Assembly (NCBI RefSeq): GCF_055900595.2
Contig: NZ_CM148325.1
Reading direction: 5' to 3' (one strand)
Length of the DNA stretch: 64,000 nucleotides
The notes beneath the pieces were generated by a model that had not been told where the DNA came from, did no database searches, and worked only from the letters and a program-made list of their open reading frames with translations. A program made the translations under genes and the position numbers. This document shows, one piece after another, positions 751 through 54,579 of the stretch (positions are counted from its first letter, which is position 1; each line of letters opens with the position of its first letter).

Positions 751-796
751 CTGATGAATCCCCTAATGATTTTGGTAAAAATCATTAAGTTAAGGT

Positions 797-865
797 GGAT
801 ACACATCTTGTCATATGATCAAATGGTTTCGCCAAAAATCAATAATCAGACAACAAAATGTGCGA
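797..865 (-). ncRNA. IS10 RNA-OUT antisense RNA (position inferred from known IS10 architecture)
   Basis: Placed from the known pOUT/pIN arrangement relative to the outside end and transposase start; not independently verified. Confidence 0.4.
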
Positions 866-47896: not shown

Positions 47897-48066
47897 AATG
47901 GCTCACTCAAGCTTGCTCACGATTGATTCCAGTAACAAACCGTATTGTGTAATTATTTCTATAGCAGGTCGCTATATAGGCTTGTATATATCGAATAATT
48001 TGAAAATCAAAGAGATATGTAGATTTTCACTCGAAAGTAGTATTACGTGTAAGTGAGGAGTAATTA

Positions 48067-48080
48067 TTGTTCGGTATCAA
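48067..48080 (-). promoter_or_regulatory. FNR box of the dmsA promoter
   Basis: Minus-strand TTGATACCGAACAA (TTGAT-N4-ATCAA-like) about 170 bp upstream of the dmsA start. Confidence 0.55.
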
Positions 48081-48192
48081 AGGGAGACAAAAAAAGCGCC
48101 CGCAGGAGATTTAACGGTACTTACTCCTCTTGCTGATTTCCTTATTTTTCAATAAGTAAACAAAAACAAGGGGAGCAAATTATCACAAATAA

Positions 48193-49702: not shown

Positions 49703-50224
49703 ATGCGGGAGATTATTGCCGACAAAGAGTTATCTGGCGCTCAACCGGTTCAGGATGATGGCGCGGACAATGAATTCATTGAAGCTGCCAACGACAACGA
49801 ACACCTGGAAACCAAAACCAGACCGTCCTACAAAAAGGGCGCAACCCTACGACTGGACGGCCCAGTCGCAGGACTTGTGTCACTGGAAAAAGGGGCTGCC
49901 TATCTGGGGGTAACAAAATCTGCGCTACGCGCCGCCATTCAGCGCGGGCAGATGCCGGGTCACAAAACGCGCTCAAATCCCGAAGATGAAAAGTCAGACG
50001 GTACATGGTGGTTTAACGCCAAAGCCTGGGACGAACTAGCCGACGAACTACTGGAGTGCGAACCGCCAGAGTGGCACAACTGGAAAAGCTACTGGACGTA
50101 CGACCGCAAGAAAAGAAAGTTTTCACCGGCAAACAAGGAGGACTGCCAGACCGTTAAAGGTAAGCAGGTTTACTCCCCCAGAGTTTCAAAACTGGAGCAA
50201 CTCAAAAACAACCAGCCCGGCTAA
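49703..50224 (+). CDS. Cox/excisionase-like DNA-binding protein (long form, 173 aa)
   Basis: ATG with SD AAGAGGA; central HTH-like segment AAYLGVTKSALRAAIQRGQMPG followed by W-rich segment resembling the Cox fold; the N-terminal 55 aa are extra relative to about 90-aa Cox proteins, so the true start may be internal. Confidence 0.55.
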   Translation: MREIIADKELSGAQPVQDDGADNEFIEAANDNEHLETKTRPSYKKGATLRLDGPVAGLVSLEKGAAYLGVTKSALRAAIQRGQMPGHKTRSNPEDEKSDGTWWFNAKAWDELADELLECEPPEWHNWKSYWTYDRKKRKFSPANKEDCQTVKGKQVYSPRVSKLEQLKNNQPG

Positions 50225-50232
50225 ACACGAAA

Positions 50233-50439
50233 ATGACCAGCAATATCATCAATGCCGTTTTGAACATTATATTCCTGGAATTAGGCGTAGTGGTGATTTA
50301 TCTGCTTGGCAAGCTAACAGGACAAAAAGAACGTTTTATTGTCCTCAACGTTCATTACGTCGCAGCTTATTCTAAAGGGCTTTTTCCAATAGTTGTTGGC
50401 GCGGGACTTACAGCGTTTGTCATCTGGCTCATCAGGTAG
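50233..50439 (+). CDS. small hydrophobic membrane protein (68 aa, 2 predicted TM)
   Basis: ORF MTSNIINAVLNIIFLELGVVVIYLLGKL..FPIVVGAGLTAFVIWLIR; weak SD, 8 nt after cox-like stop. Confidence 0.4.
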   Translation: MTSNIINAVLNIIFLELGVVVIYLLGKLTGQKERFIVLNVHYVAAYSKGLFPIVVGAGLTAFVIWLIR

Positions 50440-50721
50440 AGGCACACAACGTAATCATTCGTAGCTATATTTCCGCAATAGTATTCAAGTAAAGGAAGAC
50501 AACAACATGAAACCAAGACAAAGATTAACCTCCAGAAGTAGTGACGCATTGCACTTTAAAGCAAAAGACATAATAGCCACAACAAAGGTAGGAGCATAAG
50601 TCTATATACACTTTCAGAATTTCTATCTGGAGAGAACATTAAAAACGGAAGAGGAAGCCAATGAGTATTTGTTATTCATGAAAGATTGCATAGAAGGAAA
50701 AATAAGCGCAGGAGATAAATA

Positions 50722-51030
50722 ATGCGAAAACATTATTCACAGCCACATTTCCGCAACAGTGCACCACGCAGCAATAACCGCTGGAGCCTGCGCGAAACAC
50801 ACGCAACGCCGGGCGGTCATGCTGTAAAACAGACTGGTCAACACACCTGGCTGATTGAGCAGGCCGGACTCGTGATCCACAGATGCCACCGCAATCCGTT
50901 TACCGGAAACCGCATTTTTGCACTGAGCAGCGGCGACAATCAGTTCGGACAGGATTTCACACTGCACGAAGCCTTGCGAACTGCCGACCGCTTAATCGAG
51001 GGGCGCAGCTTTCAGCATACCGACTACTAA
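50722..51030 (+). CDS. hypothetical early-region protein (102 aa)
   Basis: ORF with strong SD (GCAGGAGATAAATA-ATG); competing antisense ORF 50737..50967 lacks an SD. Confidence 0.5.
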   Translation: MRKHYSQPHFRNSAPRSNNRWSLRETHATPGGHAVKQTGQHTWLIEQAGLVIHRCHRNPFTGNRIFALSSGDNQFGQDFTLHEALRTADRLIEGRSFQHTDY

Positions 51031-51068
51031 GGCAAAAGGAGTCTTAATAAGACAGAAGAGGCAGCAAG

Positions 51069-51311
51069 ATGAAAAGAGCCTATAAAGAACTCATTAACGA
51101 CGCGCTTCAGAATTACCATTACGGACTTACAAGCCGTGGCACTAACGGTGACGCTGTTTCACTTGCAGCACTGACTACAGCAATCAAGGGCCTGACCTGT
51201 TGCGCCTTTGGTTCCGGAGATAATGAAGCTCTGACGGAATTACAGGCCATTAATAAAGACCTGTCTGAAGGAAACGTAATAACCCCCTTTGTAATTCAGG
51301 AGGAAGCATGA
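51069..51311 (+). CDS. hypothetical early-region protein (80 aa)
   Basis: ORF MKRAYKELINDALQNYHYGL.. with SD GAAGAGG upstream. Confidence 0.5.
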   Translation: MKRAYKELINDALQNYHYGLTSRGTNGDAVSLAALTTAIKGLTCCAFGSGDNEALTELQAINKDLSEGNVITPFVIQEEA

Positions 51312-51433
51312 GCGTATTTATGTCATGGTTAATTCTTATCCTTGCCATTATTTGCGCTGTGGAGATTATGCGGGTAATTAACAGCATTAACACCATTGAA
51401 TCGTTATTTACTGGCGATAAGCGCCGTAAATAA
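51308..51433 (+). CDS. putative 41-aa membrane peptide
   Basis: ATGA overlap with the preceding stop; MSVFMSWLILILAIICAVEIMRVINSINTIESLFTGDKRRK; below the ORF-track size cutoff, found by reading the sequence. Confidence 0.3.
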   Translation: MSVFMSWLILILAIICAVEIMRVINSINTIESLFTGDKRRK

Positions 51434-51513
51434 ACAGGCGTTTAACACCAGAAACAACCAGAAACATCCGCTCACGCGGAGGGGTTGACCCGCTCAAAAA
51501 GGAGAAATCAGGA

Positions 51514-51807
51514 ATGCTTAATAATAAAAAAAACCGAATCATTGATAACAGTGAACAGGTCAACAAAATAATCGAAGGCACAAACAAATTAATTAAGAAA
51601 AAAAACAAACTAAGCCGTGAATTAATGGAACATCCGGAAGAAATATTATTAGCCATGATGCACCAGACAGAAGCGATAGCCATCGCCCTTGCCGTGCAGG
51701 CGCTTTCTGAGTTCCGGGAAGAAAACATCAGGCTGGCTCAGGAGCTGAAAAACCTCAGACGTCAGCTTCAGAGCACTGAGGCTGGCACGTCATCACGAAT
51801 ACACTGA
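51514..51807 (+). CDS. hypothetical coiled-coil early-region protein (97 aa)
   Basis: ORF with SD AAAAGGAGAAATCAGGA-ATG; Lys/Asn-rich N-terminus then amphipathic helix. Confidence 0.5.
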   Translation: MLNNKKNRIIDNSEQVNKIIEGTNKLIKKKNKLSRELMEHPEEILLAMMHQTEAIAIALAVQALSEFREENIRLAQELKNLRRQLQSTEAGTSSRIH

Positions 51808-51817
51808 GGGCCACACC

Positions 51818-52027
51818 ATGACTGCAATTCTGAGAAGACGCAATAAAACGCTTTTTACCGATACATCCGGGATGGAATACGAAGTGGAAAGCAGTGTCAT
51901 CGCCACCACCACCCGATGCCCGGCAGGTGACGAACTGATTTACGTCCACCTGACGGACGGGTCACAGATAACCGTCCTGACAGAGTCATGGCGCGAACTC
52001 GAGATAATAAGCGAGGTAAGAACATGA
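51818..52027 (+). CDS. hypothetical early-region protein (69 aa)
   Basis: ORF MTAILRRRNKTLFTDTSGMEYEVESSV.. in the co-oriented string of early genes. Confidence 0.45.
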   Translation: MTAILRRRNKTLFTDTSGMEYEVESSVIATTTRCPAGDELIYVHLTDGSQITVLTESWRELEIISEVRT

Positions 52028-52236
52028 GCAGCAAACACGATACCAACGCACGCAGACCAGGCAAAGAGGCGCGTCACCATATCGCCGTAATGCGCAACCT
52101 GCTTATGAGTGAAATCGACGATTTTGTGGCAGGCCTGGGGCAACCGGGCGAACCAGCAACACCAGGCCAGATACACAGGGAATTACGCCGCCGCGTGGAA
52201 AACGTCGTGGATTACGTCATAAACCCGAACGACTGA
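52024..52236 (+). CDS. hypothetical early-region protein (70 aa)
   Basis: Internal ATG of track ORF 51988..52236 overlapping the preceding stop (ATGA); MSSKHDTNARRPGKEARHHIAVMRNLLMSEIDDF.. Confidence 0.45.
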   Translation: MSSKHDTNARRPGKEARHHIAVMRNLLMSEIDDFVAGLGQPGEPATPGQIHRELRRRVENVVDYVINPND

Positions 52237-52275
52237 CGGGAACATGGCGAGCGTCAGATGACACACGCAGGGCAC

Positions 52276-52758
52276 TTATCGGGAAAAACCGATCGTAATG
52301 GCAGCCATCATCTTTTCAGCGAAAGAGAGAGATTCACGATGACTGATATTCAGAGACATACAGGCTTTGTTGTACGCCACATTTTCCATGCATTCCAGGA
52401 CAGGAGAGTCATGCATCTCAAGCTCTGGAAGGCGTGCCAGCAGAGCTTCCGTACTGAGGAGGGCGCTTTTGGTAATCAACTCATTGTAGCGATGGGCATG
52501 CTCACTCGCCGCCTGCGCACGTTGCCCGAAACGACATATGAAATTACAGGCTCCGAGAACCACCACCACTGCCCCAAGCACCCAGCCGAAATGCCAGCCG
52601 GCTACGATGAACGCACCCGCCGCAAGGATCAAAATGTTGATGATCGCATCAAGGCGACGATTGAATACCGCCGCGATGCGCTCCAGCCAGTAGCTGTACC
52701 AGAGACGGAACATGACCTCATCCCGTTCTCTCGATTTTTTACGTTGGTTGTTTTGCAT
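52276..52758 (-). CDS. reverse-oriented two-TM membrane protein (160 aa), candidate moron
   Basis: Minus-strand ORF with paired hydrophobic helices (AIINILILAAGAFIVAGW / FGWVLGAVVVVLGACNFICRF) flanked by basic residues, SD GAGGG upstream; the overlapping plus-strand ORF 52258..52893 is His/Arg-rich and looks non-coding. Confidence 0.45.
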   Translation of the reverse strand: MQNNQRKKSRERDEVMFRLWYSYWLERIAAVFNRRLDAIINILILAAGAFIVAGWHFGWVLGAVVVVLGACNFICRFGQRAQAASEHAHRYNELITKSALLSTEALLARLPELEMHDSPVLECMENVAYNKACMSLNISHRESLSFAEKMMAAITIGFSR

Positions 52759-52992
52759 GGTGTTTTATCCCTCATCGTCATCGCTCTGCCCCTAATCAGC
52801 GCAGAGTGCAGGGTAACCTGGCTCGTGGAATTTTTGCAGCCAGACATCTTTACCCCCGGGCGTGTTGAACAAAGTGTCCGCCAGATCCACTGAACGGCGG
52901 ATTCATCAATGCTAACACGCCCTTCTTTTCCGGTTGAAGGCGAAAAAACCGGACCATTACCCCGACACAAAACAGAACAACGGAGAACAACT

Positions 52993-53547
52993 ATGCCCGC
53001 ACTTAAACCTATGGGTGTATCAGGTGTACCACCGAAGCATGTCAGAGCCTGGACACAACAGGAAGATGCTCTACTGGTCGGTTTATACCCCTCCCACACC
53101 GTACCAGAACTGACAAAACACTTTCAGAGAACCGGGCCAGCAATACGAAGCCGCATCCGTCTTTTGCTCTCTCAGGGGGTTATCCACACCAAACAACCCC
53201 CCCTGAATACAAAAGAACTCAACACGCTCATCAGGAATCGCCACACAAAAACCATCCGGGAACTCGCGAATGAACTGGGGCGCTCGACATCCACGGTGGG
53301 ACTGAACCTGAGAAAAAGAGGGTACCGGTTCAGGAAATACGGGGAACTCCACCACAGAGCCAGATACAGCGATCACCTGGTGGAGTTGGTAACTGAACTG
53401 CGCGATGAACAGGGGATGACATTCAGCGAAATCAGAAAGTACATCCGGGACACGGCCGGGATATCCCTTAAAAGATGGGTCCTCGCCCGGCTTTACGCAC
53501 GATATACCGCCGCTGACACCGTGCTTTGCGAACTGCTACCGGACTGA
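52993..53547 (+). CDS. putative DNA-binding protein with repeated HTH-like segments (184 aa)
   Basis: Internal ATG of track ORF 52909..53547 with SD ACGGAG; segments ..TIRELANELGRSTSTVGLNLRKRG.. and ..MTFSEIRKYIRDTAGISLKRW.. look HTH-like. Confidence 0.5.
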   Translation: MPALKPMGVSGVPPKHVRAWTQQEDALLVGLYPSHTVPELTKHFQRTGPAIRSRIRLLLSQGVIHTKQPPLNTKELNTLIRNRHTKTIRELANELGRSTSTVGLNLRKRGYRFRKYGELHHRARYSDHLVELVTELRDEQGMTFSEIRKYIRDTAGISLKRWVLARLYARYTAADTVLCELLPD

Positions 53548-53637
53548 GTAACCACTATGCACACACAAAAAAACCGCTTGCCATGCCGCAATCAGTCAGG
53601 TTACATTTCCGCTGCACCTCATAAAACGGGTGCCGGG

Positions 53638-53854
53638 ATTGCAACCCCCGCTGACAACTACAGCGCACAACCGCGCCAGCGGTTTTTTTGTGCGTACCGT
53701 ATCGCCACGTCTTTTTCGCGCCAGAATTATGGCGGGGCGTATGGGGCCGACTTCGGTCGGGCCGGTTTCTGTAGTTGCCGGTGGTTGCAACCCTGTACGT
53801 CTCGCCACCCAGAATTGCAACCTCTGGATGGTGAGTTTTCAAAACTTGCAACTA
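53638..53854. repeat. cluster of four (A/G/C)TTGCAAC(C/T) repeats with a UUCG-loop hairpin
   Basis: ATTGCAACC (about 53638), GTTGCAACC (about 53784), ATTGCAACC (about 53814), CTTGCAACT (about 53845); hairpin GGCCGAC-TTCG-GTCGGGCC at about 53745-53763. Confidence 0.5.
53669..53689 (+). terminator. rho-independent terminator
   Basis: CCGCGCC-A-GCGG stem followed by a T7 run, downstream of the 52993..53547 gene. Confidence 0.55.
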
Positions 53855-53867
53855 CAGAGGCCACACC

Positions 53868-54092
53868 ATGGCAAACCGCAAACAACAGCGCGCATACGCT
53901 GCGCGTCGTCACATCCAGACTGAAATCAACCGCAGACTTTTCCGCGCATTCCGCGTCGCGCATATCATGCACATCAATATGCTGCATGAGCGCAGCCACG
54001 CACTGTCAAACATGTATTCCGCCGCTGTATTCAGCTACCTGGCGGATGACCTGCGCGAGCTGCAGGACCTCATTAACCAGCACCACCACTAA
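53868..54092 (+). CDS. hypothetical small protein (74 aa)
   Basis: ORF MANRKQQRAYAARRHIQTEINRRLFRAF.. with SD AGAGG 7 nt upstream, directly after the TTGCAAC repeats. Confidence 0.4.
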   Translation: MANRKQQRAYAARRHIQTEINRRLFRAFRVAHIMHINMLHERSHALSNMYSAAVFSYLADDLRELQDLINQHHH

Positions 54093-54160
54093 TCAACATC
54101 CCGGAGCCATCCCGCCCCCGTACGCGGGAGGCTTCCGCACGTCCGTTTCCGGAGGTTCTC

Positions 54161-54574
54161 ATGAAGAGCGTTAAGGGACTTTCAGATATTCAGGATTTTT
54201 TTAACTGGATGTGGGCGGTGGATCCACGCCTCGCTTCCCGTCTCAATGACCTGCACGACTATTACCGCCGCGCCTGTAAACAGGCAGCCCGCAGCGCTGC
54301 CACATACGGGGATTTTTCCTTCACCGTTGACGACCGTTACCGCGTGGATGTCAGAGACCAGAACCACAGCCTGGAGCTGGGCCTGTTCCACATCAACGGG
54401 TGCGACAGCAGCGTTATCAGCTGGTCATCGTCAGAAATGGTGCTCGTTCTGGAAATGACCACCCACAGCGTGGTCGTGAAAGGGATTAAAACAGCAGAAG
54501 ACTTTATCGCTGAATACCAGCGCCTTCTTGTGCTGTACCGGGCTGCATTTCAGAAGGCAACAGCAGGGGAGTAA
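54161..54574 (+). CDS. hypothetical protein upstream of gpA (137 aa)
   Basis: ORF with SD GGAGG; ends 5 nt before the gpA start. Confidence 0.55.
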   Translation: MKSVKGLSDIQDFFNWMWAVDPRLASRLNDLHDYYRRACKQAARSAATYGDFSFTVDDRYRVDVRDQNHSLELGLFHINGCDSSVISWSSSEMVLVLEMTTHSVVVKGIKTAEDFIAEYQRLLVLYRAAFQKATAGE

Positions 54575-54579
54575 GCGGA

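Follow-up and report, generated by a model that had tools for sequence, protein, structure and literature searches.

The region between positions 53578 and 53867 of the window (the whole 64,000-nucleotide stretch of DNA analysed) is very probably, judging from its sequence, an IsrK–C4 RNA immunity cassette of the P1 immI/P4 type, situated in the early operon of a P88-like Escherichia coli prophage. The window carries a P88-like, P2-type E. coli prophage (Peduoviridae, Xuanwuvirus) adjoining dmsA, with the gene order integrase, C repressor, Cox, early genes, DNA-binding protein gene, cassette, 74-aa gene, 137-aa ORF and gpA; positions given below are on the + strand unless marked (-). The RefSeq annotation holds no RNA feature in the cassette region, and the segment 53550–54600 finds a match in 1,206 of 5,426 complete E. 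coli genomes (about 22%). For the cassette, the activity of the promoter, processing by RNase P and the outcome of the regulation are inferred by homology.

The most conspicuous feature of the region is a group of short repeats. The four + strand TTGCAAC copies described in the initial annotation were recovered at 53639, 53785, 53815 and 53846, all within 213 bp, as the 9-mers ATTGCAACC, GTTGCAACC, ATTGCAACC and CTTGCAACT, in that order, with spacings of 30 and 31 bp between the last three, close to the 30 bp originally given. This clustering is non-random, far beyond chance: the 13 + strand copies in the 64-kb window correspond to 0.045 expected per 220 bp, and a cluster of four appeared in none of 500 second-order Markov simulations of the window, where the maximum was three, reached once. 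The intrinsic terminator noted in the same place is present (stem at 53669–53684 followed by a T7 run in a terminator scan), the flanking genes are those originally named (a DNA-binding protein ORF, 52993–53547, upstream and a small ORF, 53868–54092, downstream), and an open reading frame, 53557–54174, does span the repeats. The UUCG hairpin is also real and lies at 53747–53760 as CCGAC-UUCG-GUCGG, but its stem comprises 5 bp and not 7–8 bp, since GGCCGAC and GUCGGGCC are incompletely complementary. Two interpretations had been offered for this arrangement, an operator or iteron array and a structured small RNA; the second is borne out by full-length Rfam matches to isrK and C4, and the first does not hold. 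Repeat 1 is the a1 site, repeat 2 is the a' element within the C4 RNA, repeat 3 is the a2 site and repeat 4 is the 5' end of the b2 site, and repeats 1–3 look like direct repeats because the a' of this variant (GGTTGCAACC) is palindromic.

An Rfam covariance-model scan of 50000–57000 returned exactly two matches, isrK and C4, both full-length and above the gathering score; a gathering-threshold scan of the whole window yielded no further copy of either family, and a tRNA scan of the window gave no match. The C4-type antisense RNA (RF01695, 53725–53812) scores 80.1 bits against a gathering score of 45 (E = 4.9e-15, model positions 1–87 of 87). In an alignment to the c4 annotated in P1, the mature C4 would extend from 53731 to 53809 (79 nt), its ends, a tRNA-like closing stem and a 3' CCACC tail, being aligned with those of the annotated P1 RNA. 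In P1, C4 is processed from a precursor to an RNA of about 77 nt by RNase P. The predicted mature RNA folds into the family structure with a minimum free energy of -45.3 kcal/mol (z = -4.5), in which a long closing stem is accompanied by the UUCG-capped hairpin 1 (53747–53760, placed by both the Rfam match and the fold), a second hairpin, whose loop has 10 nt, and a single-stranded joint of 8 nt. The b' antisense element (UCUGUAGUUGC, 53768–53778) occupies the loop of hairpin 2, is unpaired in the C4 fold and is a perfect 11-nt complement of 53848–53858. The a' element (GGUUGCAACC, 53783–53792), which is repeat 2, lies in the single-stranded joint at the position of P1 a' (CUGUCAA) and is likewise unpaired in the minimum-energy fold. 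The P1 sites, as we read them, have the same placement, with a' in the single-stranded C4 joint and b' in the loop of hairpin 2.

All 10 nt of the a' element of the window form a perfect palindrome, and UUGCAACC is common to a1, a' and a2; this palindromic type occurs in 4 of 114 related loci. C4 is therefore able to self-pair, and the predicted a'–a' duplex (-17.9 kcal/mol) is stronger than the predicted a'–a2 duplex (-12.4 kcal/mol). These modelled energies suggest that the palindrome may favour C4 self-dimers and that a'–a2 pairing is perhaps weaker than in other types; self-pairing of C4, together with a1–a2 pairing, could give the window variant a different switching behaviour. Duplex energies computed for whole transcripts (C4 versus the UTR) ignore intramolecular structure and were set aside as evidence.

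For each antisense element, the transcript has a complement further downstream, and one of these complements is at a ribosome-binding site. The a2 target (TTGCAACC, repeat 3, 53815–53822) begins 3 nt past the C4 match, is an 8-nt complement of a' and has the same position as the annotated a2 of P1. The b2 target (GCAACTACAGA, 53848–53858) is the exact 11-mer complement of b', with a predicted b'–b2 duplex of -18.6 kcal/mol, and its 3' end overlaps the Shine–Dalgarno sequence AGAGG (53856–53860), 7 nt before the ATG at 53868. Part of this downstream region can also pair with C4 itself: in a hairpin at 53801–53835, the 3' strand of the C4 closing stem joins the downstream GGAUGGUGAG, with a2 in a 9-nt loop, and this alternative pairing, as modelled, suggests a structural switch between precursor and processed RNA. 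In P1, an equivalent pair to the arms of this hairpin, CCUGCCACC ... GGGUAGCAGG, can be made out by eye.

Upstream of C4, the IsrK-like leader RNA (RF01394, 53614–53689) matches the isrK model over positions 1–77 of 77 with 60.1 bits against a gathering score of 50. It is preceded by a promoter-like site and ends in an intrinsic terminator (53669–53690 in the terminator scan), which forms the 3' stem of the isrK model and would end the short IsrK-like RNA. The predicted sigma-70 promoter (53578–53607; TTGCCA, 18 nt, TACATT) is the sole promoter-like site found by a promoter scan across 52500–55000 and is invariant in four P88-like phages. Across the 14 cassettes compared, among them those with the annotated P1 promoter P1c4 (P51b) and the P4 region, a -35/-10 pair keeps the same distance to the leader. 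Transcription would start, as predicted from the promoter of the window, at about 53614, the first base of the isrK match. No LexA site (CTGT-N8-ACAG, one mismatch allowed) was found near 53500–53620, and LexA control of the cassette promoter was rejected on that ground.

The leader is predicted to fold into three hairpins plus the terminator, with the two sites that C4 could recognize placed in hairpin loops. The a1 site (TTGCAACC, repeat 1, 53639–53646) is placed in the hairpin-2 loop, at -86 relative to the beginning of C4 and at the position of the annotated P1 a1; it is an 8-nt complement of a', with a predicted a'–a1 duplex of -18.0 kcal/mol. The b1 site (CAACTACAG, 53655–53663), in the loop of hairpin 3 at -70, is a 9-nt complement of the b' loop. 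By this arrangement, the leader 53614–53689 appears to be the equivalent of the P1 a1/b1 leader and of the P4 seqA region. The Rfam model of the former, c4-a1b1 (RF03163), gives no match at E <= 1 in 50000–57000; it matches P1 with 51 bits, with P4 and N15 below the gathering score. By model score, the leader of the window is of the isrK type; its a1 and b1 sites sit in predicted loops.

Two further sequence relationships were observed around the leader. A 21-nt stretch at 53561–53581 (ACACACAAAAAAACCGCTTGC), upstream of and overlapping the -35 element, is 90% complementary to 53675–53695, that is, to the 3' arm of the terminator and its U-tract. The start of this stretch coincides with the point from which the four P88-like cassettes can be aligned, and the lambdoid, P1 and P4 cassettes lack it; judging from the complementarity, it could act as an anti-terminator in read-through transcripts from the upstream early operon. 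In the spacer between leader and C4, CGTATCGCCAC (53698–53708) nearly repeats CGTCTCGCCAC (53798–53808), the 3' strand of the C4 closing stem.

The comparison of related phages indicates how the cassette varies. In an alignment of C4 RNAs from 15 phages, among them the window prophage, P88, vB_EcoM-705R2, Citrobacter phiSM, lambdoid Stx phages and mEp460, a Salmonella phage, a Yersinia phage, N15, P1 and P4, the scaffold is near-constant and the two hypervariable segments are exactly b' and a'. A complement to a' of at least 7 nt is found at the equivalent downstream position (a2) in all 15 phages, and at the equivalent upstream position (a1) in 12 of the 15, namely those for which the expected site was recovered by the search; for the b sites, most of the phages show matches. 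The antisense elements and their targets thus co-vary between heteroimmune relatives. Among four P88-like cassettes the sequence is almost invariant from 53565 to the ATG and differs at six short patches, which change together: a' is GGTTGCAA in the window, with a1 = a2 = TTGCAACC; GTGGAAA in P88, with TTTCCAC; CTGCGAA in 705R2, with TTCGCAG; and GTTCCAA in phiSM, with TTGGAAC.

The same pattern extends to a larger sample. At least 120 stretches were recovered when IMG/VR was scanned for the 23 nt of hairpin 1; the matches listed, together with other fetched loci, gave 123 occurrences with enough flanking sequence, of which 114 could be parsed. These 114 loci, drawn from the matches listed, fall into 25 (a',b') types; in the same set, both a1 and a2 complement a' over at least 7 nt in 109 loci, both b1 and b2 complement b' over at least 8 nt in 100, and all four sites do so in 99. 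When a' or b' was compared with the flanks of a locus of a different type, matches were found in 0 of 512 comparisons for a and 2 of 582 for b. Such matching within a type without matching across types is, on the sequences compared, the signature of RNA–RNA recognition and not of a protein-binding motif.

This variation also bears on the first of the two interpretations originally offered, according to which the four TTGCAAC repeats would be operators or iterons for the upstream 184-aa HTH protein (52993–53547). The repeats do form a non-random cluster with a palindromic core, the gene for a DNA-binding protein (with weak HTH Pfam matches only) lies directly upstream of them, and that gene is present at all four loci with the TTGCAACC type. 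Against this, that gene is upstream of only 13 of 105 cassettes, these 13 carry six a' types, and in P88 its position is taken by a different gene; a motif conserved together with the HTH gene was not seen in these cassettes. The repeats lie within RNA genes and a 5' UTR and not in non-transcribed control DNA, repeat 2 being inside the C4 RNA and repeat 4 belonging to the b2 site, and it is this last repeat ('CTTGCAACTACAGAGG', the start of b2) that P88 retains without the other three despite its a' GUGGAAA. The repeats are, moreover, absent from otherwise identical loci, as in P88, where TTTCCAC and GTGGAAA stand in place of the TTGCAACC and GGTTGCAA of the window, and relatives exchange the repeat sequences in such a way that RNA complementarity holds, not a common DNA motif. 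The operator or iteron reading is largely refuted by these observations, and we regard it as highly improbable.

A protein-coding interpretation of the region, as the 205-aa ORF 53557–54174, is slightly less credible still. The frame is open, and its equivalent is annotated as a CDS in one public record, that of phage vB_EcoM-705R2; nevertheless, it crosses two curated RNA families and then enters the epsilon-like gene out of frame, the variation among relatives is limited to the six RNA-pairing patches, and RefSeq does not call the ORF. Public phage records lay CDSs across the cassette in several ways (L003, 2458–3075; L002, 5033–5221 (-); L005, 2146–3297; L006, 2141–3292), and some of these CDSs are called 'antirepressor', with starts upstream of the RNAs. 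The CDSs annotated over the IsrK–C4 cassette are probably over-extended or spurious calls.

The gene that follows b2 directly (53868–54092) codes for a 74-aa protein homologous to P4 epsilon, the helper derepression protein, and would be the first regulated gene. It matches Pfam PF25738 (Derepression, E = 3.5e-6) and phrog_3688 and is named 'derepression protein' in RefSeq. In hhalign, a profile built from eight relatives pairs with P4 epsilon at a probability of 93% (E = 3.4e-7). No resemblance between the 74-aa protein and P1 Icd was detected, and its 44-aa local match to P1 Ant1 (E = 0.065) is not significant. The 137-aa ORF of the same operon (54161–54574, phrog_3237) has no Pfam or NCBIfam match and no similarity to P4 orf151 or orf106, and it is variable, being found downstream in just 12 of 92 related loci. 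It is followed by the gene for a gpA-type rolling-circle replication endonuclease (54580–57090; phrog_91, E = 4.8e-241; annotated 'replication endonuclease'), which is likely the last gene of the regulated unit. Among the IMG/VR matches listed, the first ORF is epsilon-like in 104 of 113 loci and gpA lies behind in 83 of 92; an Icd-like first ORF was seen, among the same matches, in seven loci, all of them P4-like satellites. No (a',b') type is common to satellites and P88-like loci in the seven satellite loci sampled, and cross-immunity between P4-like satellites and P88-like phages through shared a/b types was rejected on this count.

The C4 type, the epsilon class and the C-repressor class reassort among 42 P88-like loci (L019–L132), and their many combinations indicate frequent recombination between the modules. 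Epsilon class was not seen to track C-repressor class in these 42 loci, one epsilon class occurring with six C classes; such a link would have spoken for an action of the epsilon-like protein on its own C. From this reassortment, the RNA arm would therefore be an immunity determinant independent of C, as in P1. C class 4 was observed mostly with epsilon class 3 (7 of 8 loci).

In the mechanism proposed for the IsrK–C4 cassette, transcription from the promoter would give a leader that shows a1 (UUGCAACC) and b1 (CAACUACAG) in hairpin loops and ends at the terminator. The read-through transcript would contain a tRNA-like C4 exposing b' (UCUGUAGUUGC) in a loop and a' (GGUUGCAACC) in the single-stranded joint, followed by a2 (UUGCAACC) and then by b2 (GCAACUACAGA) over the Shine–Dalgarno sequence of the P4-epsilon-like gene. 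By homology with P1, P7, P4 and Gifsy-1, C4 would be excised from this transcript, and pairing of its a' and b' with a2 and b2 would block translation of the epsilon-like gene; the loss of translation (polarity), or a premature termination of the P4 style, would reduce expression of the genes behind, including gpA. In this manner the prophage would produce the repressor RNA while neither the anti-repressor nor the replication protein is made. The a1 and b1 sites of the leader would pair with the same C4 elements as a2 and b2, and the short terminated leader could titrate C4 or remodel the long transcript, providing a route to derepression. The a/b sequences would then constitute a specificity, or immunity-type, code independent of the protein repressor C.

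The order and placement of these elements follow those of P1. In the P1 GenBank record, promoter P1c4 (P51b) is followed by a1 and b1, the c4 RNA, a2 directly after c4, and b2 before icd, and the record describes b2 as 'repression of icd ant translation'. The immI regions of P1 and P7 and the cassette of the window are alike in having a promoter, an a1/b1 leader with a terminator, C4 with a' and b', a2 and b2, in the same order and with the same spacing; in the position of b2 on the Shine–Dalgarno sequence of a first ORF of about 73–74 aa; in the Rfam family of C4; and in that specificity resides in the a/b sequences. They differ in the a/b sequences themselves, which in the window are entirely different, and in the genome that hosts the cassette, which in the window is that of a P2-type integrating phage. 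The operon genes also differ, since those of P1 are icd and ant, whereas the window has the epsilon-like gene, the 137-aa ORF and gpA. The leader of P1 falls below the threshold with the isrK model and above it with c4-a1b1, whereas that of the window scores as isrK.

The resemblance to P4 concerns both the RNAs and the genes. The C4 model gives the P4 CI RNA 74.9 bits, and isrK gives the P4 seqA region 60.8 bits; the P4 immunity region shares with the window a seqA-like leader, a CI-like RNA, a downstream complementary site, an epsilon homologue and a replication gene, and some P4-like satellites carry the identical hairpin-1 23-mer. Unlike the window, P4 has an Icd-like ORF directly after CI and a leader that is further off (-160), and its replication gene is that of the primase–helicase alpha, not gpA. 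The mechanism described for P4 is transcription termination, whereas in the window b2 lies on a Shine–Dalgarno sequence. A P4-like mode of action, in which C4 would pair with the nascent RNA and cause premature termination ahead of the epsilon-like and replication genes instead of occluding the ribosome-binding site, is conceivable, although we consider it rather unlikely. In its favor, the same C4 and isrK models match the P4 CI RNA and seqA region, the order of an epsilon gene and then a replication gene parallels that of P4 epsilon, orf151 and alpha, and there is the termination mechanism of P4, which involves CI, seqA and seqC and has been summarized together with the activation by IsrK in Gifsy-1 (PMC4825925). 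Nevertheless, the overlap of b2 with the Shine–Dalgarno sequence is precisely that of P1, whose record annotates translational repression; the terminator scan found no terminator-like site between C4 and the ATG; and the distance from leader to C4 is that of P1 (-86), not that of P4 (-160).

A different use of the leader is known from the Gifsy-1 isrK–orf45(STnc1160)–anrP locus, which resembles the window in its succession of parts: an IsrK RNA whose terminator can be read through, then a processed RNA, then an anti-repressor gene (PMC4825925); the lambdoid cassettes of the comparison set belong to this kind. Experiments on Gifsy-1 IsrK have established Hfq binding and trans-activation of the read-through mRNA (PMC4825925), and lysogens of Gifsy-1 transcribe both IsrK and STnc1160 at a high level (PMC7067206). 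A positive control of this sort in the window, compatible with repression by C4, may be entertained only tentatively: pairing in cis between the leader a1/b1 and C4 would silence the long transcript, and the short IsrK-like RNA, acting in trans, would open it, so that the epsilon-like gene is turned on. When the complete 273-nt transcript is folded, its minimum-energy structure does pair the a1/b1 region in cis with a'/b', an isrK match and a terminator are present, the predicted a'–a1 duplex is stronger than that of a' with a2, and the Gifsy-1 experiments (PMC4825925) supply a precedent. In Gifsy-1, however, the short IsrK RNA activates translation via orf45, which overlaps the C4-like region and is coupled to anrP, whereas the first ORF of the window starts past the C4 RNA, 58 nt after it, and its ribosome-binding site is covered directly by b2, as in P1.

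The proposed repression by a P1-type C4 RNA at the epsilon-like gene can also be set beside the anti-repressor operon of N15 (genes 32-31-30), where isrK, c4-a1b1 and C4 matches occur upstream of Icd-like and Ant genes; N15 is different from the window in being a linear plasmid-prophage and in its downstream genes and a/b types. The C4 and a1b1 motifs appear in a catalogue of 2010 (PMC2864571), and literature searches for an account of this cassette in P88-like or P2-like phages returned none. Both RNA families are well known, as is their logic, and the cassette is unsurprising in kind; the P2-type prophage context was found undescribed, and the epsilon-like/gpA arrangement is unlike that of P1 and P4.

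The stretch occupied by the cassette is unannotated or mis-annotated in public records, and the present data indicate that P88-like prophages carry an RNA immunity arm of the P1/P4 style before their epsilon-like derepression and replication genes. The cassette could explain the chemical induction reported for P88 and heteroimmunity within the P88-like group; it links the immunity module of the P4 satellite to its helper-type phages, and its 25 co-varying a/b types represent a natural library of orthogonal RNA–RNA specificities. As a speculation that we hold to be possible but on balance doubtful, P88-like P2-type phages may have a two-part immunity, in which the C protein repressor is accompanied by an independently reassorting C4 RNA code that guards the epsilon-type anti-repressor and gpA; this arm would share a common ancestry with the immunity–derepression region of P4 satellites, and helpers and satellites might detect or shut out one another according to whether their a/b types match.

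Some additional features were recorded in the window and in the comparison phages. In the early region of the prophage, the 160-aa ORF on the opposite strand (52276–52758 (-); phrog_6315) matches SLATT_1 weakly (E = 0.006) and, from its sequence, resembles a moron or perhaps a defence gene. Rfam matches elsewhere in the window are RNA-OUT, the IS10-type antisense RNA (796–865 (-), 97 bits), and STnc130 (47987–48121, 128 bits), the latter near the dmsA side of the prophage junction. In phage phi191, a match to sRNA-Xcc1 (L009, 2523–2606, 79.6 bits) lies downstream of the Rha gene, and Yersinia phage vB_YpM_39 carries a match to ryfA (L011, 149–447 (-), 134.6 bits).
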